The translations under genes and the position numbers were made by a program. Shown here piece after piece: positions 10,644 to 23,366 of a stretch of DNA of 35,380 bases (positions are counted from its first letter, which is position 1; each line of letters starts with the position of its first letter). A model generated the notes under the pieces. It was not told where the DNA came from. It saw only the letters and a program-made list of their open reading frames with translations, and did not search any database. Origin of the DNA: a bacterium (lineage in GTDB: Bacteria; Zhuqueibacterota; Zhuqueibacteria; Oceanimicrobiales; Oceanimicrobiaceae); assembly GCA_046757025.1 (NCBI GenBank), contig JBHHXN010000041.1, positions 1-35,380 of the forward strand, written 5' to 3'.

Positions 10644-10781
10644 ATTATCAATCGCCATGCAATTCTTCTAAGTAAAAGCATTCCAGAAATTCAGCCGTGT
10701 CCCATCTTCGAAATAACTGAGAGATTGAAGTTCGAACAGTAATCTTACTAAGTATTAGTTGGAAAATACTTGAGTAGAATT

Positions 10782-11768
10782 ATGAGTAAGACTCAATTCA
10801 TTGGGAGTGATCCCAAGATAAAAGATATATTACAGTTGGTTCAACACGTAGCTGATACCGATGCCACCGTTTTAATCACCGGAGAAAGCGGGACGGGTAA
10901 AGAACTGATTGCCCGCATCCTTCATGAGGATAGTTCGAGAGCCACAAATCCATTTATTGCAGTGAACTGCGGTGCATTAACAGAAACACTACAGGAATCT
11001 GAATTATTTGGCCATGTGAGAGGCGCGTTTACCGGTGCTTCTTCGAAAAAAATCGGCAAGTTTGAGGCAGCACATCGGGGGACTATATTTCTGGATGAAA
11101 TCAGTGAAATGAGCAAAGTTCTGCAAGTGAAATTGCTCAGGATCCTGCAATCCGGGGAGTATGCGCCAGTCGGAATGGCATATAATTGTTATTCGGATGT
11201 ACGCATTGTTGCGGCGACCAATCAAACGCTACAACCTCTGGTCGAAGCTGGTGAATTTCGACAGGACCTGTATTATCGGTTAAACGTCATTTGTCTGGAC
11301 CTGCCTCCGTTGCGAGAGCGCAAACAAGATATTCCATTGATGTTAGACCATTTTCTGAAAATCTTCAAAAACGTTTATGATAAACCTGAGCTTCAGATAT
11401 GTCCTGAAATTGTGGATGTATTGATGCAGTACGATTATCCAGGTAATGTTCGGGAATTGGAAAATATTATACGCAGGTCGATCATTTTGTGTTATGAGGA
11501 CCGGATTTCGTGCCAATATTTGCCTTCATACATTTTTGAAGAAAGGATTCATACACTGGAAGAGCACCCTAAAGACTTTCATCAGGCAAAAGCACAGGTG
11601 GTGGAAGAATTTGAACGAGATTATTTAACCTCAAAACTCAAGGATTGTGGCGGTATTATCAGTCGGGCAGCCGAGAGCGCAGGCTTGAGTGAACGCAACT
11701 TCCATGAAAAGATGAAGAAATACGGCATTCGAGGAAAGGCCTTTCGAGCAGAAGTGAACGCCGGTTGA
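10782..11768 (+). CDS. Sigma54-dependent enhancer-binding protein without N-terminal sensory/receiver domain
   Basis: Walker A GESGTGKE, ESELFGHVRGAFTGA, FLDEI, RQDLYYRLNV, YPGNVRELEN, C-terminal Fis-type HTH; start is ATG 10782 or TTG 10770. Confidence 0.93.
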   Translation: MSKTQFIGSDPKIKDILQLVQHVADTDATVLITGESGTGKELIARILHEDSSRATNPFIAVNCGALTETLQESELFGHVRGAFTGASSKKIGKFEAAHRGTIFLDEISEMSKVLQVKLLRILQSGEYAPVGMAYNCYSDVRIVAATNQTLQPLVEAGEFRQDLYYRLNVICLDLPPLRERKQDIPLMLDHFLKIFKNVYDKPELQICPEIVDVLMQYDYPGNVRELENIIRRSIILCYEDRISCQYLPSYIFEERIHTLEEHPKDFHQAKAQVVEEFERDYLTSKLKDCGGIISRAAESAGLSERNFHEKMKKYGIRGKAFRAEVNAG

Positions 11769-11951: not shown

Positions 11952-11966
11952 TGGCACCAATGTTGC
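11952..11966 (+). promoter_or_regulatory. Sigma54 (-24/-12) promoter
   Basis: TGGCAC-CAATG-TTGC, an exact match to consensus TGGCAC-N5-TTGC, between the activator gene and the downstream cluster. Confidence 0.85.
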
Positions 11967-12059
11967 GATTTCTCGAACGAATTTAGCCAAATTTACTCCA
12001 ATCATGTTTGCTTTTTACGCACTTAAAATTTAGTTGGATTTTTGTTTATAGGAGGATAT

Positions 12060-12500
12060 ATGGTGCAGAGAAACAGCGATCAGGTAATTCACTTTTGTCT
12101 CGCTGGAGCAAAAGTAAGTAACGATTGGAACTTGATCTGGCAACTTAAAATGGGACACGTTGTGACAATTGTTGAGAGTGAACACATTTTCAATGGCAAT
12201 TCCATTTTAGCTTCAGCAGATGTTCTTATTTTAGATTGCAATGAAAAACAAGAGTCGTATTCGCGATTTTTACAGAATTTACGAAAAATGAAAAGCGATT
12301 TTCCTGGACTGTGCATCGTGCTGGTAAATGGCGGGATCGACCAGAAGCAAATTGCTTTGGCGTTCAAAGAAGGAGTGCACGATTATTTCTCTGACCCTTA
12401 TGACGCAATACTGCTGATGGAACGCATCCAATACTTAATCCGAAACAAAAAAAACAATCAGATGGGTTGGGTTGATTCACATCCAGAGTCTATAAACTAA
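12060..12500 (+). CDS. Stand-alone degenerate receiver (REC-like) domain protein
   Basis: ADVLILD, CIVLVNG, ALAFKEGVHDYFSDPYD; conserved Lys of KP replaced by D; GGAGG RBS before ATG 12060. Confidence 0.7.
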   Translation: MVQRNSDQVIHFCLAGAKVSNDWNLIWQLKMGHVVTIVESEHIFNGNSILASADVLILDCNEKQESYSRFLQNLRKMKSDFPGLCIVLVNGGIDQKQIALAFKEGVHDYFSDPYDAILLMERIQYLIRNKKNNQMGWVDSHPESIN

Positions 12501-12770: not shown

Positions 12771-15140
12771 TTGATGAAAACAATAAAAGAGCACCTGGAC
12801 AGGGCAAGTACTCATCAGGAAAACGAGTCGCCATTTCTTACAAGTGAAGAATTCGTGCCTGTTCAAGAAGAAGGTAATGGCTCTGTGACCATAGCATCCA
12901 ATATCAGAACTCCATTCGCGTCAATTTATGAGTGGCCTGGTAATGAAAATATGATGAGCGAGGAAGACCTGGAGGTATCCAGATTCGTAACCTCCTTATA
13001 TGATGAGGAATTTGACTCCGCTGTGTATCAGATAATGGAAGAAGCCTCACAACTCATTTCTGAATATGGGGAGAACCAGGAGGTCACAGCGGAACATTTG
13101 CTGAATGAGCATTTTGACTCACTGGCTACTGAGACAGAAGCAGCAATGGACTTCATAGCTGAGCACGCCGAACAGCTTGAGCAGGAAACGATTACGGAAT
13201 CAGAACTTGAAGCCATGGTAAACGACTGGCGGGTGGGTCGGACACCACTAACTCCAGGTCAACAGGAATATTTCTGGGGTTGGGCCAAGAAGGCAGTGAA
13301 ATGGGCCAAAAAGAAAGTCAAGGCGGTCGGGAAATGGGCTTTGAAGAAAGCTCTCCGCAAATTGAAAAGACTGGTAAGACCGGTTCTGAAACAGGTCTTG
13401 AAAAAAGCCATCAATTGGCTGCCATCAGCGTTACGTCCTATAGCTCGGCGTCTCGCCAAAAAGATTTTGAAGAAAGTCTCGGAGGCCGAGTTCGAGGATC
13501 CTGAGTACGAAAATCTCTCGGAAGTGGGTGCCATTCAGCATGAGCTGGATTTGCAATTAGCCCATCTGTTGTATTCGGAAGACGAAGAAGAGCAGGACGC
13601 AGCGGTTTCTGAGTTTATGCTTGAGGCCAATCAAGGTCCCGAGGATGCCGTCGTAAGGCTGCAGTCTGCCCGCGAAAGGTTTATCCAGGAAATCAGTGAG
13701 TTGGAAGATGAAGCAGACGTTGAGCCAGCGGTCGAACGATTTATTCCAGCTCTTCTGCCAGCTCTCAAATTAGGGCTTAAACTCATCGGTCGCCGCAAAG
13801 TTGTCAATTTCATCGCCAAGTATGTCGCCAAATTTATCAAGCGATTTGTGGGTAGAAAGTATGCCAAACGATTGTCTCGCGCAATCGTGGATGCCGGTTT
13901 GCGTTTGATTCATCTTGAAACGAACGAAGCAGACGAGCTCGAAGCCGCTGCCAGCGCAGTTGCAGGGGTGGTTGAAGACACGGTTCGAGAAGCTGCCGGC
14001 TTACCAGAACATATTCTCGAGGATGAGGCGCTGTTGGAAGGATTTCTGCTCGAAGCGTTTGAAAAAGCCGCCGCAGCAAACCTGCCGCAAGTGCTTCCTG
14101 AAAGTGTTTACGAGGATAGACCCGAACTGCGTGAGACTTCGCACCGCAAAGGCGCCTGGGTGATGCTGCCCAAAGGCAAACGAAAGCGTTTTAAAAAATA
14201 CACAAAGGTTATCGACGTCGTGATTACGCCGCATGCAGCCAAAATGATTAAGACGCATGGTAAACGTTCGCTCTCGACCTATTTTCAAGAAAAATTGAAA
14301 TTGCCAGCAGGTAAAATAGTAAAAGCGCGGCTCCATCTTTTTGAAGCCATGGTAGGCACGCGCTTAAGCGACATCAGTCGAAACGACCCAAGCCTTTCAT
14401 CTCATCTGCCAGTCGGCCGCGAATACGAGCACTTGCACCCCTTGACTCCCGAAGCAGCTGCCATGCTTTTAAATGAACCCGGCCTCGGAAGAGAGTACCA
14501 GGAAGCGTATCATTCCGACCGGACGCCAGGCAATGATGGCGGCAGGCGCGTCTATTTTATTGAAACAGAAGACGTACCTTACCTCGCGGGTAAAAAACAA
14601 CTTCCTCGCCTGTCTGAAGCCAGGCTCACGTTTGATTTTCCGGCAAACGAGGTCAAGATCTTCGCTTTTTTAAATGAAGGACGGGCGCAGGAAATCGCAC
14701 GAAAAATTCGACGTCAGGAACCTCCTGGGCAAATTTTAAACACGGTGTCTTCTGTCATGCGCAGTTTAATCGATGAAGCATTGAGCTGTAAAGTTCACCG
14801 CCATACAAGGGTGTTGCATGCGTCGCTGGCACCTGAAGCTATGATCGGAAATGGTTTGGGCCGGCTGCCTGCAAATATGCGTACGAAACTCCCTGTAACA
14901 ATTACAGAATGGGTGGGGCGAGGTCTGAAAAACTTTTTTTCCGAAAACGCTCAAGACTTCGTTTCGGCCACGGAAGACGAAGCAGATGGAGTAACGATGT
15001 TGATGACGATATCCGATCCTCCTGGTCTTGTAAATCTTCGCAAGATGATTGCTGGTGCCTCAACCCAATTTAGCCGCAACGGTATTCATGGGCAGGTTCA
15101 AGTGAACGTAAAGGTAATAGCCGGTTTTTACTATGAATGA
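12771..15140 (+). CDS. Hypothetical 789-aa protein: SPF/acidic leader, alternating acidic tracts and cationic amphipathic segments, C-terminal globular region
   Basis: Long ORF with AAGGAGG RBS (TTG 12771 or ATG 12774); charge-segregated composition is visible in the translation. Confidence 0.85.
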   Translation: MMKTIKEHLDRASTHQENESPFLTSEEFVPVQEEGNGSVTIASNIRTPFASIYEWPGNENMMSEEDLEVSRFVTSLYDEEFDSAVYQIMEEASQLISEYGENQEVTAEHLLNEHFDSLATETEAAMDFIAEHAEQLEQETITESELEAMVNDWRVGRTPLTPGQQEYFWGWAKKAVKWAKKKVKAVGKWALKKALRKLKRLVRPVLKQVLKKAINWLPSALRPIARRLAKKILKKVSEAEFEDPEYENLSEVGAIQHELDLQLAHLLYSEDEEEQDAAVSEFMLEANQGPEDAVVRLQSARERFIQEISELEDEADVEPAVERFIPALLPALKLGLKLIGRRKVVNFIAKYVAKFIKRFVGRKYAKRLSRAIVDAGLRLIHLETNEADELEAAASAVAGVVEDTVREAAGLPEHILEDEALLEGFLLEAFEKAAAANLPQVLPESVYEDRPELRETSHRKGAWVMLPKGKRKRFKKYTKVIDVVITPHAAKMIKTHGKRSLSTYFQEKLKLPAGKIVKARLHLFEAMVGTRLSDISRNDPSLSSHLPVGREYEHLHPLTPEAAAMLLNEPGLGREYQEAYHSDRTPGNDGGRRVYFIETEDVPYLAGKKQLPRLSEARLTFDFPANEVKIFAFLNEGRAQEIARKIRRQEPPGQILNTVSSVMRSLIDEALSCKVHRHTRVLHASLAPEAMIGNGLGRLPANMRTKLPVTITEWVGRGLKNFFSENAQDFVSATEDEADGVTMLMTISDPPGLVNLRKMIAGASTQFSRNGIHGQVQVNVKVIAGFYYE

Positions 15141-16386
15141 GTACGCTCAAATTATTAAGAAGCAATTGACCCGTCAGGTGCAGCATTGGGCATTTGCTGC
15201 GTCGAGGTTGCAGAACCTCGAAGATTACACTTCGCCCGACGCCTGGCAAGAGCTTGAGCGCTATCTTGGCGTGGCCATTCGGAGTGAGTTGTCGCGTCAT
15301 ATTGACCGTCTTGCGCGGCAAGGACAAAAGCTTTTCTTGAATCTTCGAAGTATCCAATCGTTGCCAGCGCTTGAGGACTTCGGCAGGCAGTTATTGAATT
15401 TCCGAACCAGCTATCTTAGAACGGAAACTGCTGTGGATTTTTACGCAGATGCCATCAATACCAGAACGAACAAGGAGATCGGCGCATTGCTGCGAGCGTG
15501 TGATTTTATCGCCAGAAAAAGTATGACCGATCTCCTGGATAAACTCCACAAGCCAACACCGCCGGTTCTCTGCTATCTCGATGACGGAGTGGGCGCTTCG
15601 ATTCTGAAAGCGGGGCTGCGATTCCCTGGCGGTCCCATTGAAAACCCGGCCGCAACCATTAAAGTTGTTCATCACAATCTTTATCGCCCGACATCGCTCA
15701 TCCACGAGGCGGGTCACCAGGTTGCTCACATACTCGGGTGGAATCGTGAACTGGCTGCAAGTTTAGAACAAGCCCTTGGCAAATATGACAGTGAAGTAGC
15801 GGAAACCTGGGGAAGTTGGGCGTCTGAGATTGCGGCAGATACCTTTGCTTTTGTTCATACGGGTTACGGTTCGGTTGCGGCGCTACATGACGTTGTGGAT
15901 GGTGGTGCGAGCAAAGTCTTTCGATTTTTGCCCGGAGATCCACATCCAATCGCTTACATAAGAGTCTTGTTAGGAACGAGTATGTGTACAGCGCTCTGGG
16001 GCAAAGGGCCATGGGATGAGCTGGCGCTTGCCTGGCAACACCGATACCCACTTAATCAAAAACAGTTGCACGTTTTCGAGTTGCTTAATAAATCGTTGCC
16101 GCTGCTTCCAAAAGCAGTGGAAACGTGTCTGATGACGCCAATGCGATCATTTGGTGGACAAAATTTGATTCAGCATATAAATCCCGAGCGAGTTAAGCCG
16201 GAAAGTCTGGCTGAGTTGGAACGCAGCGCCGGCAAAGCGCTTTTTCATTCGGAGCACTGGGTGCAGACTGAAGCGCTACGATTGTTAGCACTTACTGCTT
16301 TGAGATGCGCTACATTACCCGACGAAGCCTTATCAACATACCGCCAACAGAGGGCCTGGATGCTCAAGTTAGGCGGCATCATTTAA
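15133..16386 (+). CDS. Putative zinc metallopeptidase (HExxH, gluzincin/M48-like motif order)
   Basis: SLIHEAGHQVAH, downstream WASEIAADTFA and GDPHP; ATGAATGA 8-nt overlap with the upstream gene. Confidence 0.7.
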   Translation: MNEYAQIIKKQLTRQVQHWAFAASRLQNLEDYTSPDAWQELERYLGVAIRSELSRHIDRLARQGQKLFLNLRSIQSLPALEDFGRQLLNFRTSYLRTETAVDFYADAINTRTNKEIGALLRACDFIARKSMTDLLDKLHKPTPPVLCYLDDGVGASILKAGLRFPGGPIENPAATIKVVHHNLYRPTSLIHEAGHQVAHILGWNRELAASLEQALGKYDSEVAETWGSWASEIAADTFAFVHTGYGSVAALHDVVDGGASKVFRFLPGDPHPIAYIRVLLGTSMCTALWGKGPWDELALAWQHRYPLNQKQLHVFELLNKSLPLLPKAVETCLMTPMRSFGGQNLIQHINPERVKPESLAELERSAGKALFHSEHWVQTEALRLLALTALRCATLPDEALSTYRQQRAWMLKLGGII

Positions 16387-16427: not shown

Positions 16428-16631
16428 ATGGCTAAAGATGAAACCAAAGTCAAGACTGTACCCACGGAAAACGTTATTCACACCAGCGCACGGGAGGATC
16501 CGCCAGACCCGAAAGCACAGGCCATTGCTGAGTTTATAAACATAAAAGCCGCGTTGAGTGGCGCCGATCCGGTCTGGCCAATTCCGGAATTAGATGATAA
16601 ATTGCGGCCAGGATTTAGCGGCCAGAGTTAA
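16428..16631 (+). CDS. Small hypothetical protein, 67 aa (MAKDETKVK...)
   Basis: GAAAGGAG RBS at 16413-16420 before ATG 16428; fills the gap in the operon. Confidence 0.65.
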   Translation: MAKDETKVKTVPTENVIHTSAREDPPDPKAQAIAEFINIKAALSGADPVWPIPELDDKLRPGFSGQS

Positions 16632-16668: not shown

Positions 16669-17850
16669 ATGTTTAGAAGAATAGCACGAGGAATTGCGGG
16701 CGGTGCAAACACCTTATTCAAACTGCACCCACTCGAACTGAGTGCCTTACTGGAAGCAGCATGGGAATTCAGGGTTCATCAATCACCACTTCAGGCTGGA
16801 CACCCGAATCGTCGCAGCGACACACCTGAACTGCCGAGGTATATCCTCAACCTCTTTGATTTTTTTTCTGGCGGGAATACAACAGGTAATTCACTGAACG
16901 CCGTTGTGCAGAGAATGTTTGGCGAGGTCAGGTGGCACCACCTGATCTACGCTTACATGATCGAGAATACCCGCGTGTATGAGATTTTTGAAAAAGTTTT
17001 GTTTGAATACCTGCACGGCGAACGTCTCGGCCCGCCACTTCCGGATGCTCAGCACTGGCTTCGAAACACGGAAGAGTTGTTTTACAGAGATCCGGCACCG
17101 TTTTCTATCTACGGCGTGGTGAGCGATGTTCGTCCGGATAAGCGCGCGTCCCGGCGTAACGCTTACTACCGAATGTTTGGAATGGAGTTGAATCATGGCG
17201 CAGGCAAAGAAAAGACTTACAATTATCAAAAACCCGAGGTTGCTAACCGCGAATTTGTAGCGACATTTGAGGCTTTTCTACGTGAGGTTTGGATTGGCAT
17301 TTCCAATGTTGGCAATGCAAGCGGAAGCAATCCCACTGATAATGCTGCCATCGCAAACTTGGCGCGTCAGCTCAGCGATATGCTGAGAACCCGCCGGCAA
17401 AACGGCAACCTGTCCCGGCAGGAGTTTTGGTACGTCGCGATGATGTCCTGGTTCCATCTGACCATAGAACCCACAAATCCACCGCTGCCAATTATCGCCT
17501 CTTTGCGCGCTGAAGCACCGAGAGAAGATCAAGTCTTGTTCAAAGTGGCCGAGCGTGTAGGACAGCCGGTCTACAGCCGGGCCTATGATCTGTTTCAACT
17601 TGCCGAGCCCATGTCAAGAATTCTAACTCAGATCGAAATGGAAACTTATAATAATCCAGCAGCTGTGCCTGCACTTTATACTGAAGCTACTAATGGCCCC
17701 GAAGCGGACATGCGAACCATCATCACACACTGGTCGCTGGCAACCGGCAAAGACATGAAAGTTAGAAAAGGCTCGTCGATTTCGCAAATCAAGACCAGTG
17801 GCAATGGGCAAGCCGCAAAGCCAGAGAAGATGGTACTCGAAGCGGTTTAA
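16669..17850 (+). CDS. Hypothetical 393-aa cytoplasmic protein, no assignable family
   Basis: GAAAGGAG RBS before ATG 16669; globular composition with motif-like blocks WHHLIYAYMIENTR, RRNAYYRMFG, SWFHLT. Confidence 0.8.
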   Translation: MFRRIARGIAGGANTLFKLHPLELSALLEAAWEFRVHQSPLQAGHPNRRSDTPELPRYILNLFDFFSGGNTTGNSLNAVVQRMFGEVRWHHLIYAYMIENTRVYEIFEKVLFEYLHGERLGPPLPDAQHWLRNTEELFYRDPAPFSIYGVVSDVRPDKRASRRNAYYRMFGMELNHGAGKEKTYNYQKPEVANREFVATFEAFLREVWIGISNVGNASGSNPTDNAAIANLARQLSDMLRTRRQNGNLSRQEFWYVAMMSWFHLTIEPTNPPLPIIASLRAEAPREDQVLFKVAERVGQPVYSRAYDLFQLAEPMSRILTQIEMETYNNPAAVPALYTEATNGPEADMRTIITHWSLATGKDMKVRKGSSISQIKTSGNGQAAKPEKMVLEAV

Positions 17851-17968: not shown

Positions 17969-20461
17969 ATGTCCTCCAGAAAACATTTAACGTTTCAATC
18001 CAAAAAGCCAATTGTGACAGATATTTCTCCATTTATGACTGAGCTGCTGATTGACGAGGAAGATCAAGAAAATTCTGGCGGTCGAATTGGAGCGTTTAAT
18101 CAGAATCAAATAGAACGATCTATTCTTCCTGAACAGGCCTTCAAAGAGGAAGCGAGTACTGGCGCCGAATCTGACGAGTTTGACATTTCTGATGCGGAAT
18201 GGGATGACGAAGATATCATTGCTGATGAAATTATGGAAACAGAATATGCATCTGAGGATGACGACGATGACGAAATGGTTTCAGAAGGAAAGTGTTGTGA
18301 ACAATGCAGGGCTCGACAAAAAGAGGCAGAATATGAATATTTTTATGAAGATTTAGAAGATGAAGATTTGGAATCAGAGTACGACGATGAACATGAATTT
18401 TTTTCAGAAACTGACGTAGACCACCTGGATGAAGAACAGGATTGGGATGATGAGGATGAATATGAAGAAAACGAAAGTCTGGAGTATGATGAGTGGGAAT
18501 CCGAATTTGAAGAAGACGAACTTGAGGATTTGATTGAGGATCCGGAAGAATACTACGAAGAACTGGATGACGAGTTTTGGGAGGCTGAAATCCCTGCTGA
18601 AGCATTAGAGCAAGAAATTCATAACGACACTTTCACAAGAGTTCGTAATCAACGTAACGGCTTTCGAAGAGATTGGGAGATTGAAGCTGCAATGCAACTG
18701 CACTGTGACGATCAGACGCCACTCGATTATAAAGCGCTCTATGAACTGTTATCTGGCACTGGTCGCAATCGTCGCGAAGATTGCAATGATAATGATTGGG
18801 ATGCATTCAGGGACATGCGTCGATGTGCCAGTTGTGCTGCATTTACCAGCGGCTTCGGCTGGCGTCGCATGACCTGGGACAAAGACTCACATGCAATCCG
18901 TGAACAGTTCCCATACGTGTGGCTAACTGTCGAACCGCGTCGATACCGACGAAGAGAACAACGTCTCAATAGAAGGGTTGATTTCGCCACCGACATGATG
19001 GATGATTTCTACTTTGATGATGACCATTTCACTCTGTTCTGCAATAAATACCTGTTGCGAGGTCGCAAGCGCTGGGACAGTTGGCGTTGTAACGAGGCTC
19101 CTGATATCAGGCGCCTTCTGGTGGCCACCAAAAGGATAGAAGGAGTTGATCCTGATGGAATCAAAAAAGCGTATAAAGAAGACATACGATTAAACCGCGT
19201 CAGGCGAAGGCATCTCAGGGACCTGGTGCGAGATATCCAAAAGGGTCTGGTAGATTGGTCTCGCAGCAGGCGAGCGAGGCAGCGTAACTTTAGGGCGATC
19301 TTTCCAATCAGGCGCATGTACGAAACCTTGCAAAGGAGGGGCGTGTTCTCTGGATTTACCAAAGGGAACAATACACATGTACTGGACCTTAAACCCAAAG
19401 TTTTTATTCGCTCTTTGCGTTCTCGCTACCACTTGCGGGAGACTTCATTACGGCGTTTAGAAGAAATTCGTCTGTTGGGGATACGACGACTCCGAACCTT
19501 ACGAAATAACGCCAGAATGCGTTTGAGGGATAATACATTGAATCCAGCTTTACAAAACGTGGCTCAGAATTTTGTAAGAAAAGCAACGGGCTGTCTCAAT
19601 TACAGCCTGGTGACCTCCCGGGCACAGTCCCAATTGCAGGCGCTACGCTCTGGCAGGCAAATAACACGTAACCGGGTTAGGGCATTGCGCCCGCGAAGAC
19701 GTCCGCGTATCCGCCGGCATCGAGAGCTTCAAGAACGCAGGGTTATCGCGGAAACACTCAACAAGCTCTATCACGAACTGGCGATGGAAGCAAATAACAG
19801 TGGACTGTTAAATTCAATCTCAGGAGTATCAACAAATGGAGGGCAGTTTTGGGTCAGGCAAATCGAGGCAGCAGGTAGCGCAGGTCTCGGACTTTGGTTT
19901 GACCAGGCACGGGAACACTATGTGCCCCGCTCTGGACGTATCGTGCGTGACGATTTCTTGATTGACACGCTGGATGCCAGCGGCATGTTCACGCCCGATG
20001 CCTGGGCCTGTATTTCAGAGGATCAGCAAACTCACCAGGCGCAGCCGGACATAAACAAGCTATTCTACGCTTCCCTGACCAATGAGGTCCAAATTGAGCA
20101 GGGGCGAGAACGAGCTTTTCTGAGAACGATCGATAATTTGAAAGACCAAATCGCTCGGACTTCAAACTCAGGCAGAAGACAAAGACTACAAACCCGGCTC
20201 ACTGGTGCAAACTTCGTATTTGGAGAGTACCGGAAAGCATTGATAATGATCGCGAAAATAAAAGAAAACCAGATATTAAACGGCATCGATCGCGAAGTGT
20301 CGGCTGCTCGCAGAGCAGGGGAATCGGCGCCACAATGTCAGAATTGGGCCTGGAAGCCAGCAAAGCAAGGCAAAGGTGAGAAAGCCATGACTCTGCTCAG
20401 GCAGAAATTCGGGATTCAGTGTAAGTCAGGTGCGGCAGCGACAACCTCCACTTTTGTTTAA
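17969..20461 (+). CDS. Hypothetical 830-aa protein: SPF motif, ~215-aa Asp/Glu-rich leader, extremely Arg-rich body
   Basis: AAAGGTG RBS; composition of the translation. Confidence 0.8.
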   Translation: MSSRKHLTFQSKKPIVTDISPFMTELLIDEEDQENSGGRIGAFNQNQIERSILPEQAFKEEASTGAESDEFDISDAEWDDEDIIADEIMETEYASEDDDDDEMVSEGKCCEQCRARQKEAEYEYFYEDLEDEDLESEYDDEHEFFSETDVDHLDEEQDWDDEDEYEENESLEYDEWESEFEEDELEDLIEDPEEYYEELDDEFWEAEIPAEALEQEIHNDTFTRVRNQRNGFRRDWEIEAAMQLHCDDQTPLDYKALYELLSGTGRNRREDCNDNDWDAFRDMRRCASCAAFTSGFGWRRMTWDKDSHAIREQFPYVWLTVEPRRYRRREQRLNRRVDFATDMMDDFYFDDDHFTLFCNKYLLRGRKRWDSWRCNEAPDIRRLLVATKRIEGVDPDGIKKAYKEDIRLNRVRRRHLRDLVRDIQKGLVDWSRSRRARQRNFRAIFPIRRMYETLQRRGVFSGFTKGNNTHVLDLKPKVFIRSLRSRYHLRETSLRRLEEIRLLGIRRLRTLRNNARMRLRDNTLNPALQNVAQNFVRKATGCLNYSLVTSRAQSQLQALRSGRQITRNRVRALRPRRRPRIRRHRELQERRVIAETLNKLYHELAMEANNSGLLNSISGVSTNGGQFWVRQIEAAGSAGLGLWFDQAREHYVPRSGRIVRDDFLIDTLDASGMFTPDAWACISEDQQTHQAQPDINKLFYASLTNEVQIEQGRERAFLRTIDNLKDQIARTSNSGRRQRLQTRLTGANFVFGEYRKALIMIAKIKENQILNGIDREVSAARRAGESAPQCQNWAWKPAKQGKGEKAMTLLRQKFGIQCKSGAAATTSTFV

Positions 20462-20484: not shown

Positions 20485-21759
20485 ATGCTTTCTGATAAAG
20501 AAGATCTCGATCTGAGCATAAAATTTGTTACTCCATTTCTCAATGAATCAATTTTCGATGAAGAAGAATATGAAAATCAGGTAATGTACAAGTACGAGCC
20601 TGACAATCAATATGAAAGCCAATCCCGGTCTGTAATCGAGCCTGCGGAAGAAGAAACTAGTGAAGCGGAGGCTGAAGAATATTATGAATTCGAAGATGGG
20701 TTTGATAATGAGTTTGTAGATGAGCAATTCGAAGAATACAAAGATGAATTCGAGGAATTCAATGAGGATTTTGATTATGAGGTGGAACTCCAGAGAGAGG
20801 ATTGGGAACAGGAATGGGCTGATTTCCAATTAGAAGATTCAGATTCGCTCAAAGAAGTCAAATCTACGATGCAATCTATTCTAAAAGCTAAAACACCGTC
20901 AGAGAAACGGATAAATCAACTAAAACAATTATTCGAGGAAAAGGTGCCACTGTTTGATTCCCGGTTGATCCTGAGGAAACTGATTAATAATACCAATGAA
21001 GGCCGGCTTCTTAAGAAGTGTGTTCCTCAATATTCTCCACGCCGCAGACTGCTTCGCCTCCTGTACTGGAGAACAAAAGGCGCAGACATTACGAAACGAG
21101 GGGAGATTTTCAGCAGAAGGCTAAAGAAATTACGGGCGAAAGAATCAACAAAGTTAATATGGCCCACGAAAAAGAAATACTGGAAAGAGATGACCGCGTA
21201 TGAAAAAAAAGTCATACGATCATCACATGCCAGCGCAACTATTAGAGCCGAAGCCATGCTAATCGCAGCTAATATTTATGCGAAGCAACTAGATACGCCA
21301 GCCGCCGCCAGCGTTTACTATGAGAAAGCAGTCGGGCTCATACGAAACGGGCAAGCCTATTCCTCATTGAGCGCCTCTGACAGAGAGCTCTTTATAAGGG
21401 AAATCACCTCACGAATCCAGATGATAAAGAAACATTTGTTGCAACAATCAGAAAAACCGACTGCAAGCTCCCTTGCTGAATGCCGAAGTGGTGCTGCCAG
21501 CGATTATTTTATGTCAGGTTATATGGAAGATGCAGTAGCCGTATTTAAAAGCATCTTGAAAATTGACGGCCTAAAATTAGATAATTTCGAAAGGCTACAT
21601 GCGTTGGTTAAACTGGGCGATTTTTACAAAGAATCTGTTCCTGCAGCGGCTTTGTATTATTATGAAAAATATCTTGAGTCAGGCTTGCTCCATGGTGATT
21701 CGAAACAATCTTTAAAAAAGGCAATAACTCGACTGAACAAGCGTGTTGACAGTCCATAA
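20485..21759 (+). CDS. Hypothetical 424-aa protein: TPF motif, ~120-aa acidic leader, basic middle, TPR-like C-terminus
   Basis: AASVYYEKAV, AVAVFKSILKI, ALVKLGDFY...AALYYYEKYL TPR-like helices. Confidence 0.75.
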   Translation: MLSDKEDLDLSIKFVTPFLNESIFDEEEYENQVMYKYEPDNQYESQSRSVIEPAEEETSEAEAEEYYEFEDGFDNEFVDEQFEEYKDEFEEFNEDFDYEVELQREDWEQEWADFQLEDSDSLKEVKSTMQSILKAKTPSEKRINQLKQLFEEKVPLFDSRLILRKLINNTNEGRLLKKCVPQYSPRRRLLRLLYWRTKGADITKRGEIFSRRLKKLRAKESTKLIWPTKKKYWKEMTAYEKKVIRSSHASATIRAEAMLIAANIYAKQLDTPAAASVYYEKAVGLIRNGQAYSSLSASDRELFIREITSRIQMIKKHLLQQSEKPTASSLAECRSGAASDYFMSGYMEDAVAVFKSILKIDGLKLDNFERLHALVKLGDFYKESVPAAALYYYEKYLESGLLHGDSKQSLKKAITRLNKRVDSP

Positions 21760-21785: not shown

Positions 21786-22892
21786 ATGCAAAAAAGTGAA
21801 TTTAGTTCGAGGCAGAAGCTGTCTGGAAATCCCTTCCTGCATGCTTTTGAAGCAATTCAGAATGAATCCATCGAACAACTTAATGATGAATATTATAAAC
21901 TCGACGATGAGTTTGCTGATGAAGGGTCAACTGGGAGAAAGGGGATATATTCGGAATCCCCTTTCATTGCGATGGTTCAAGAAGGAGTAGAGCTTGAATC
22001 AGAAGTGTTTGGTGCCAACCAAATGATGTGGGTGCGCAATCCCCTGGCAGTTCCGAATCGCTGGATCTGCCGTCTGGACATAAGATACGAAATCACACCG
22101 TGGAGTGGGGGGCGAAGGCTGCGGGGCTCCGGAAGAGGAACCGGTACTCTAATCGGGAACCGTCACGTTTTGACCGCGGCACATAACATCCAGATGTACG
22201 ATCCAGTACGTAAAAACTATCTCAGAGCTACCAGGATCATGGTCACACCGGCCCATAATGGCAGCACTTCGCCGCCAATTATGGGAGTAGAAGCAGATCT
22301 ATCCAGGTCAAGAACACCGCGAGGTTGGCAAGTGGCTCGTAGAATCGCTGCAAACGGTGCAGCCAATATGGCTGGAGAAGTCGCGACCAACCGCCACGAC
22401 TACGCGTTACTCACTTTGAGAAGGTCCATAGGACAAACGCAAGTACGAGTGCTGGGCAGTCGACTGGGCTACTGGGGGAACAACGGATCGAACGGTATAG
22501 CCCACTTTCGACGCCAGAATCCGACCGTTTTAAAAGACAACAAAGTCTTTGTCGCAGGCTATGGTTATGATAACTGTGTGAGGACGGTCCGCCGAGTGAC
22601 TGCAACTCCAGGAATCCCCCTGGGCAGTCAGTTAATTGCGTCGGGTCGGCTACGACTTTTCCGAGTCAGAGGTAAAAACAGCATCTTTATTGGTAGAAGC
22701 ATGGCCCACGACGTAGATACTTGCGGCGGTCAAAGTGGTGCGTCAGTCTGGATTGAGCGGAATGGAGTGTTTGACTTGGTAGGAATTCATACGGGTGCAG
22801 TCAGTCTCTCCAATGGTGTGCGAGTAAACCACACCGTCCGTGTCACCCGCGAATTTATGAGGAACGTTCGATATTGGCAAAGGCACACTTAG
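21786..22892 (+). CDS. Trypsin-fold serine protease, V8/glutamyl endopeptidase-like, with acidic pro-leader
   Basis: GTGTLIG, VLTAAHN (His), HDYALL (Asp), DTCGGQSG (Ser), VGIHTG; predicted mature start ELESE|VFG. Confidence 0.88.
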   Translation: MQKSEFSSRQKLSGNPFLHAFEAIQNESIEQLNDEYYKLDDEFADEGSTGRKGIYSESPFIAMVQEGVELESEVFGANQMMWVRNPLAVPNRWICRLDIRYEITPWSGGRRLRGSGRGTGTLIGNRHVLTAAHNIQMYDPVRKNYLRATRIMVTPAHNGSTSPPIMGVEADLSRSRTPRGWQVARRIAANGAANMAGEVATNRHDYALLTLRRSIGQTQVRVLGSRLGYWGNNGSNGIAHFRRQNPTVLKDNKVFVAGYGYDNCVRTVRRVTATPGIPLGSQLIASGRLRLFRVRGKNSIFIGRSMAHDVDTCGGQSGASVWIERNGVFDLVGIHTGAVSLSNGVRVNHTVRVTREFMRNVRYWQRHT

Positions 22893-22958: not shown

Positions 22959-23366
22959 ATGAAAAACAAAAATCTATCGTCAAGAATATTGACAACATTA
23001 TGTGGTTTGCTGACCGCAGTCTTGTTGATGGGCTCGCTTTGTACCAAGCCCATCGATCTGGAGCCATTCAAAGAACTAGCCCGAAATGCCGATTGTGCAG
23101 AGATCAGCAATCGTCTGTTTCTGATCGATAAGAAAATGGTATTCTGGGAGCGCCTGGGCAATTGTCCCGATAATAGTTTTGCGCAAACGCTTTACGGCAA
23201 AACGCCGGACGACGTATTGTGTTCGCGCTACGATTCCATCGGCGGTCCTCTGCAATCCTGCAACGATCAATCATACCAGAATATGTTTCAAACCATGGTG
23301 GATAACCTTAATCAACCTGATTTAGGACTTGGGCCAGGCCATGATGTTGAACCGATCTCATTTTAA
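22959..23366 (+). CDS. Small exported Cys-containing protein/possible lipoprotein
   Basis: MKNKNL + hydrophobic stretch ending GSLC; four further Cys; GAGG RBS. Confidence 0.7.
   Translation: MKNKNLSSRILTTLCGLLTAVLLMGSLCTKPIDLEPFKELARNADCAEISNRLFLIDKKMVFWERLGNCPDNSFAQTLYGKTPDDVLCSRYDSIGGPLQSCNDQSYQNMFQTMVDNLNQPDLGLGPGHDVEPISF

Follow-up and report, generated by a model that had tools for sequence, protein, structure and literature searches.

The locus and its surroundings

The window, by which we mean the whole 35,380 nt stretch of DNA that was analysed, carries an operon of fixed order: A, B, C, D and then variable cargo genes. Protein A (788 aa; 12774..15140, + strand) starts at the ATG at 12774, after an AAGGAGG site, within an ORF that opens at the TTG at 12771. 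The gene for protein B (417 aa; 15133..16386, +) overlaps the 3' end of A by 8 bases. It is followed by the gene for a small, poorly conserved protein, C (67 aa; 16428..16631, +, from an ATG after an AGGAG site), and that for protein D (393 aa; 16669..17850, +), which is conserved and all-helical [AlphaFold2 (AF2) pLDDT 90].

Upstream of A lies the gene for a sigma-54 activator with AAA+ and Fis HTH domains (10770..11768, +; Pfam Sigma54_activat, E 1e-67), then a candidate sigma-54 -24/-12 consensus site (11952..11966, +), identified by pattern match upstream of the gene for a stand-alone receiver-like protein (12042..12500, +; weak response-regulator matches below the cut-off). From its position, the activator is a possible regulator of the operon. 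A gene similar to that of the receiver-like protein precedes A in one further locus (L046), and only 3 of 69 loci have a sigma-54 site no further than 400 bases from A. Further upstream, the window contains an Omp85-type barrel gene followed by a gene for a 576-aa protein without a Pfam match (3853-6895), and a stretch of low GC content (7001-8000, 34 % GC) with a PIN-domain gene near a short ORF at 8796-9092, which we take to resemble the start of an IS-type transposase. The low-GC stretch and the transposase-like ORF could be the border of an acquired island.

Relatives of A were assembled into a set of 80 genome loci of this operon form (type I), found in cyanobacteria, actinobacteria, Bacteroidota, Acidobacteriota and proteobacteria, with five loci from methanogens. 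B stands directly after A in 71/71 of the loci with room for it, usually with an overlap or a gap of no more than 35 bases, and 65/65 of the loci with room for D have it; the nine loci without B all end no more than 54 bases past A, and the six without D no more than 530 bases past B. A small variable gene occupies the position of C between B and D across loci. The profile of B matches 553 clusters at 50 % identity. The system was found in none of 40 relatives of the host genome; no relatives of A were detected in viral contigs, and none of B in phages. A LuxR-type cluster lies upstream in 19 of 64 type I loci (six members checked by Pfam).

Two cationic segments in protein A

Protein A consists of a leader, a helical N-terminal half that holds two cationic segments and an alpha/beta C-terminal half. 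Segment 1 (13269..13478, +; ORF residues 167-236) is 70 aa long, with 25 K/R and neither D nor E, and forms three predicted cationic amphipathic helices after an E-x-F-[FLW]-G motif, with E166 directly before it. Segment 2 (13737..13916, +; ORF residues 323-382) is 60 aa long, with 16 K/R, one D and no E, and forms three predicted amphipathic helices between an E-x-F-[ILV]-P motif and the invariant E383, with E322 before it. The preliminary description had given these lengths, residue counts and preceding Glu residues, and translation of both intervals reproduced them exactly. The amphipathic periodicity that it had claimed also holds, as the mean hydrophobic moment was reached by 0 of 5000 shuffles of the same residues for segment 1 and by 17 of 5000 for segment 2. 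Windows of 18 residues within the segments have net charges of +3 to +8 and moments of 0.29-0.65, and none of them is a hydrophobic stretch of transmembrane grade.

Shuffling of the whole of protein A produced two Glu-free runs of such length in 10 of 20,000 trials, and one run of at least 71 residues in 226 of 20,000. In a scan of 3,380 host-genome ORFs with 200 aa or more, the two segments were the sole acid-flanked, Glu-free cationic runs (at least 55 aa, at least 20 % net-cationic, with acidic flanks), by thresholds that were chosen with the segments already known.

Conservation was assessed among 426 homologues of A in the scored candidates, the best 120 of which were aligned. The segments are kept in at least 200 homologues, with starts at Glu-x-Phe, and are conserved and acid-poor in the 120 aligned homologues and in 75-80 of the 80 genome loci. 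Within the alignment, segment 1 starts with E-x-F in 91 homologues, E-x-L in 12 and D-x-F/L in seven, and has no such start in ten; segment 2 is framed by E322 (116/120), F324 (119/120), P326 (119/120) and the closing E383 (120/120), and contains many invariant small residues. Glu makes up 1.3 % of the core of segment 1 and 0.2 % of segment 2, against 13-19 % of the flanking helices and 6.4 % of the C-terminal domain; the alternation of acidic spacers and cationic amphipathic segments reported from this one sequence is thus a conserved layout. Exclusion of Glu, a point on which homologues were to be compared, gave a more mixed picture. Segment 2 is Glu-free in 106/120 homologues and 52/80 genome loci (internal Glu in 28/80), whereas segment 1 is Glu-free in only 43/120 homologues and 37/75 loci (five of the 80 were dropped as too short) and contains internal Glu in 77/120 and 38/75. 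Glu is depleted in the segments, not excluded. Since segment 1 has as little Asp as Glu, positive charge is by itself enough to account for the Glu pattern.

Amphibian and insect antimicrobial-peptide precursors carry an acidic spacer and then, after a dibasic (KR) processing site, a cationic amphipathic peptide with Phe at its start. The resemblance to these precursors proposed for A extends to the acidic spacer, the cationic amphipathic character and a Phe near the start. It does not extend further, as A has neither a signal peptide (its N-terminus is acidic and hydrophilic, and its maximum 19-residue hydropathy, 1.21, lies in segment 2) nor a dibasic site at the segment boundaries, which are instead E-x-F and L-E. 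Moreover, the segments of A are 60-70 aa long and form part of a folded protein of 788 aa that has another domain besides.

The AF2 model of A (pLDDT 79, pTM 0.79) has a disordered leader and places each segment as three helices between acidic helices, with pLDDT values of about 55-88 in the segments. Model confidence and the order of the helices suggest that the cationic helices are packed on the acidic ones. Both segments lie in a compact predicted domain. The alternative offered at the outset, that the segments pack as helices, describes the precursor state better. Both E-x-F sites fall inside predicted helices (model residues 161-185 and 317-330), and so do not stand out as places for a cut. 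Inside the chain, the model shows disorder only in the acidic linker that directly follows segment 1 (13467..13514, +; pLDDT below 50 at model residues 232-247), which is variable and tolerates insertions in the alignments; on the model, it is the most accessible candidate cut site.

Protein A had no match in Pfam, NCBIfam, PADLOC or PHROGs. A fold search with the whole 788-aa model gave no clear match (best Z 7.3, rmsd 2.9 over 110 aligned residues), and no gasdermin, colicin or saposin-like fold was among the matches listed for this whole-protein model. An atlas search with A returned hypothetical clusters only, and a search at shorter length returned 11 matches, apparently fragments. Covariation across 200 sequences was noise. 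A complex prediction for A(60-285) with B and D scored 0.00 and gave no verdict.

Proteins B and D

B is predicted from its motifs to be a gluzincin-type metalloprotease, with HEAGH at residues 191-195 and E232 and D236 downstream. The HExxH (H191, E192, H195) and ExxxD (E232, D236) residues are invariant in 67/67 sequences, and the motif is present in 57 of 58 long representatives. A sequence search found no peptidase match for B, and neither B nor D matched Pfam, NCBIfam, PADLOC or PHROGs. A match between the coiled coil of B and Srn2 (E 0.003) was taken as generic. PDB sequence searches with A, B, D, both segments and two cargo proteins gave nothing useful. For D, the fold search showed no clear match (best Z 5.8, TIPE1, rmsd 5.0 over 124 residues), and the atlas search nothing above 0.82. 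The lack of a clear match for the models of A and D does not by itself make them new folds. No RNA holder is listed for the operon.

A second operon form with small precursors

Distant relatives of B (E 1e-40 to 1e-49) occur on replicons of Rhizobium, Ensifer and Paraburkholderia, where acidic precursors of ~220-350 aa stand in place of A and are followed by B (type II). Each of these precursors contains a cationic, Gly/Ala-rich peptide of glycine-zipper make-up after the motif E-x-[ED]-x-F-L-G. The peptide is Glu-free, with a median length of 70 aa, in 100/100 scored close homologues, which are kin and not independent (20 of 120 were dropped as they had no boundary motif). For 72 of 80 distinct starts at metagenome loci, the peptide extends over 60-75 aa before the next Glu. 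Stand-alone Glu-free peptides of ~70 aa, as had been envisaged for A, thus do exist in a related operon form.

Among 36 type II loci of at least 6 kb, B was present in 33, a conserved gene after B in 32 and a GluC-type protease in one. The gene after B aligns weakly to D (E 0.047 over 256 columns). We base the link between the two forms on the shared order precursor-B-D and on shared cargo domains (DUF2272 and PG-binding). Segment 1 and the type II peptide are only weakly similar (hhalign E 6e-4, probability 28 %; E 2e-3, probability 13 %), and this similarity may reflect composition. The small type II precursors are the best argument for the segment as a separable membrane-active unit. A search of 29 type I genomes for the type II precursor, run with one query and no positive control, found none. 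A sigma-54 factor gene cluster accompanies 20 of 78 type II loci (one member checked). Frequent additions at loci of this type are an amidohydrolase gene and a gene resembling PLP-dependent aminotransferases (L085-L087; L143:1963-3564).

Which protease could act on the segments

The cargo of the window includes a 368-aa protein (21786..22892, +; Trypsin E 1e-5) with an acidic propeptide, the predicted mature part of which begins at 22005, after a Glu. It matches V8 protease (E 1.2e-4) and has the His-Asp-Ser triad, together with equivalents of Thr190 and His213, residues with a role in V8-type glutamyl endopeptidases that is set out in PMC5508998. We therefore predict that it is a V8-like glutamyl endopeptidase; it differs from the V8-type enzymes in having no signal peptide, in its twin-PF acidic leader and in its presence at a minority of loci.

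The preliminary description had supposed that a Glu-specific serine protease would digest the acidic spacers and free both segments intact, as soluble antimicrobial peptides. The protease in the window, with its Glu-specific S1 residues, speaks for this, as do the conserved bounding Glu residues, the strictly Glu-free type II peptides and in silico Glu digestion of A, which yields cationic fragments of 72 and 61 aa. As a general mechanism, however, intact release is not supported: both segments contain internal Glu residues in part of the homologues, Asp is as rare as Glu in segment 1, the cargo domains are not poor in Glu, A is predicted to fold both segments into a compact domain, and the protease stands outside the core. 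Trypsin-type (V8-family) cargo occurs in 13/80 loci (12 of the 56 in which D is followed by 4 kb or more), with both S1 residues in 3/13 by motif reading, and a GluC-type protease in 1/78 type II loci. In 26 of the 29 carrier genomes without one nearby, no V8-family member was found anywhere at E<=1e-15, in genomes of which many are incomplete and at a cut-off that more distant Glu-proteases escape. We consider this mechanism unlikely. No protease other than B accompanies the segments in every case, and the first reading was right about the anatomy and probably wrong about the protease. In the host genome, the GluC-like cargo could add Glu-directed trimming as an optional payload.

Away from the core operon, another GluC-type protease was seen that has an acidic leader and two NPS-aromatic motifs (L082, in the genome of L063); leader-bearing cargo may thus also occur as orphans.

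Cargo proteins and their likely targets

Directly after D, the window encodes an 830-aa cargo protein (17969..20461, +) with an SPF leader, a very acidic first ~215 aa and an Arg-rich domain; it had no Pfam or PDB sequence match, and its Arg-rich domain had no relative in the 80 loci. A 424-aa cargo protein (20485..21759, +) follows, with a TPF leader, an acidic tract and a cationic domain that is perhaps TPR-like, as it matched only designed TPR proteins, and weakly (E 0.26-0.56). Beyond the V8-like protease, a 135-aa protein (22959..23366, +), which may or may not belong to the system, has a hydrophobic N-terminus with a lipobox-like Cys and no homologue in the 80 loci.

An SPF-type motif is found at the start of 51 of 69 cargo candidates and is usually doubled at a spacing of ~27 residues, as in A, where the twin SPF/TPF motifs (12828..12917, +) lie 27 residues apart. 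The domain scan covered 48 of the 69 candidates and identified 19 with peptidoglycan-hydrolase or -binding domains, nine trypsin-type, five PLD, four PhoD/DUF7800, two OmpA and one Hcp-like, with nothing found in ten. An unannotated alpha/beta-hydrolase-like domain recurs in cargo of both operon types (L009:15089-18436; L017:15468-18965; L086:16288-19089). Cargo domains are separated by Glu-rich linkers, and the long Glu-rich tracts contain 23.6 % E. A system-wide rule of Glu exclusion was rejected, with 4.95 % E in cargo domains versus 5.36 % in neighbours (p 0.07). A conserved immunity gene was not seen after the cargo, and a rough screen found a neighbour with a hydrophobic N-terminus in 2 of 22 cases.

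The Glu-rich tracts of the cargo allow for a structural role, in which the segments would be permanent helices of a scaffold or chaperone. Their positive faces would bind cargo by its Glu-rich leaders and linkers (or else bind nucleic acid or anionic lipid) to build a particle or condensate, and B would trim cargo leaders, not A. The compact model of A with both segments helical, and the invariant small residues of segment 2, as in packed cores, are also compatible with such a role. We think it possible, if rather doubtful: A bears the same twin-SPF leader as the cargo, which suggests that A is itself a payload, the acidic helices of A already balance its charge, and in type II the same slot is filled by acidic precursors that contain short glycine-zipper peptides.

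A self-lysis or abortive-infection module would make different use of the same genes, with B switched on in the cell, A perforating the membrane of the producer like a holin and the hydrolases destroying the producer's wall. N-termini unlike signal peptides, the sporadic distribution and the dedicated upstream regulators (the LuxR-type clusters of type I and the sigma-54 factor clusters of type II) would suit this arrangement. Against it, peptidoglycan hydrolases are part of the cargo at two loci (L009, L017) of methanogens, which have no peptidoglycan, and this points to bacterial, foreign targets; furthermore, the cargo is polymorphic, as in competition systems, and PADLOC gave no match. Self-lysis is accordingly a distinctly improbable function for the operon.

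Export

None of the 51 leader-bearing cargo proteins has a signal-peptide-like N-terminus in a rough hydropathy screen, and no conserved transporter was seen in the operon loci. The exit route could be lysis of the producer through A, or loading into another device by means of the twin-SPF leader.

One such device would be an extracellular contractile injection system (eCIS) encoded elsewhere, with A and the cargo as its payload, the twin-SPF motif as loading tag and the segments acting after injection. The eCIS marker Pvc16_N is present in 17/30 carrier genomes, compared with 4/40, 8/100 and 42/300 in control sets, which do not match all carrier taxa, so that lifestyle could explain the enrichment. 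The host genome has an eCIS-like locus with a Pvc16_N match on another contig (C32, 2-15921), with ORFs that we take to be sheath-, tube- and AAA-ATPase-like, and one cargo protein has an Hcp-like domain. Nevertheless, 13/30 carriers lack the marker, several isolates and one closed chromosome among them, and 12 of these 13 also lack a sheath match. We regard an eCIS payload as very unlikely. A gene resembling a sigma-54 activator precedes the eCIS-like locus, as at the A operon.

A proposed autoinhibited membrane-permeabilizing precursor

We propose, with a probability of about one half, that A is an autoinhibited membrane-permeabilizing precursor, likely activated by B, within an antibacterial lytic system. 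The segments would be cationic amphipathic helix bundles, folded into A and neutralized by its acidic helices. B would cut A in its acidic stretches and unmask the membrane-permeabilizing module, and the exposed helices would then permeabilize membranes. The system would attack other bacteria by pairing this membrane damage with wall hydrolases and phospholipases. The basis for this proposal is the composition, amphipathicity and boundaries of the segments, the order A-B-C-D-cargo, the motif of B, the shared leader, the lytic cargo and the type II form. A also has a conserved 330-aa C-terminal domain, which a model of masked lysis leaves unexplained.

Several known systems share features with this operon. 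Like the pairs of bacterial gasdermins and proteases, it would place an autoinhibited membrane-active protein beside a dedicated protease, and the type II peptides share their glycine-zipper make-up with glycine-zipper and leaderless bacteriocins. Unlike either, A has no listed sequence or fold match, its partner protease is predicted to be a gluzincin, a dedicated transporter was not seen and lytic-enzyme cargo is co-encoded. Polymorphic toxins and eCIS cargo also combine a conserved N-terminal tag with interchangeable peptidoglycan-, lipid- and protein-degrading domains; here, however, the A-B-C-D core is not part of any catalogued secretion system, conserved immunity genes were not seen and the domains are strung on Glu-rich spacers. 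Among the open-access papers listed in literature searches aimed at the system, none describes the operon in its title or abstract opening, and text from PMC12419801 was unrelated. We conclude that it is a real, apparently undescribed system.

Taken further, and put forward tentatively as something we hold to be less probable than the proposal above, A-B-C-D with its twin-SPF cargo would be a cross-domain weapon against bacteria, so far undescribed and equipped with a trafficking signal of its own. Its gluzincin would read acidic spacers, unmask pore-forming helices and split lysin polyproteins, as a bacterial counterpart of the logic of perforin or granulysin plus enzymes. It would be a source of hundreds of encrypted antimicrobial peptides of 60-70 residues, and methanogens, too, would turn it on bacteria. 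Killing of bacteria by archaeal peptidoglycan hydrolases has been reported; according to PMC12352652, 32 % of these hydrolases have a known signal peptide and about two thirds have none. The tables of that paper could hold some of the cargo genes.

Although the operon is old and widespread, no catalogued family matches A, B or D, and no solved fold clearly matches the models of A and D. Should the proposal be correct, it would represent a new kind of protease-activated membrane attack and a new leader for signal-peptide-independent delivery, along with a large collection of natural candidates for peptides and lysins. It would also offer a testable route for those archaeal peptidoglycan hydrolases that have no signal peptide.
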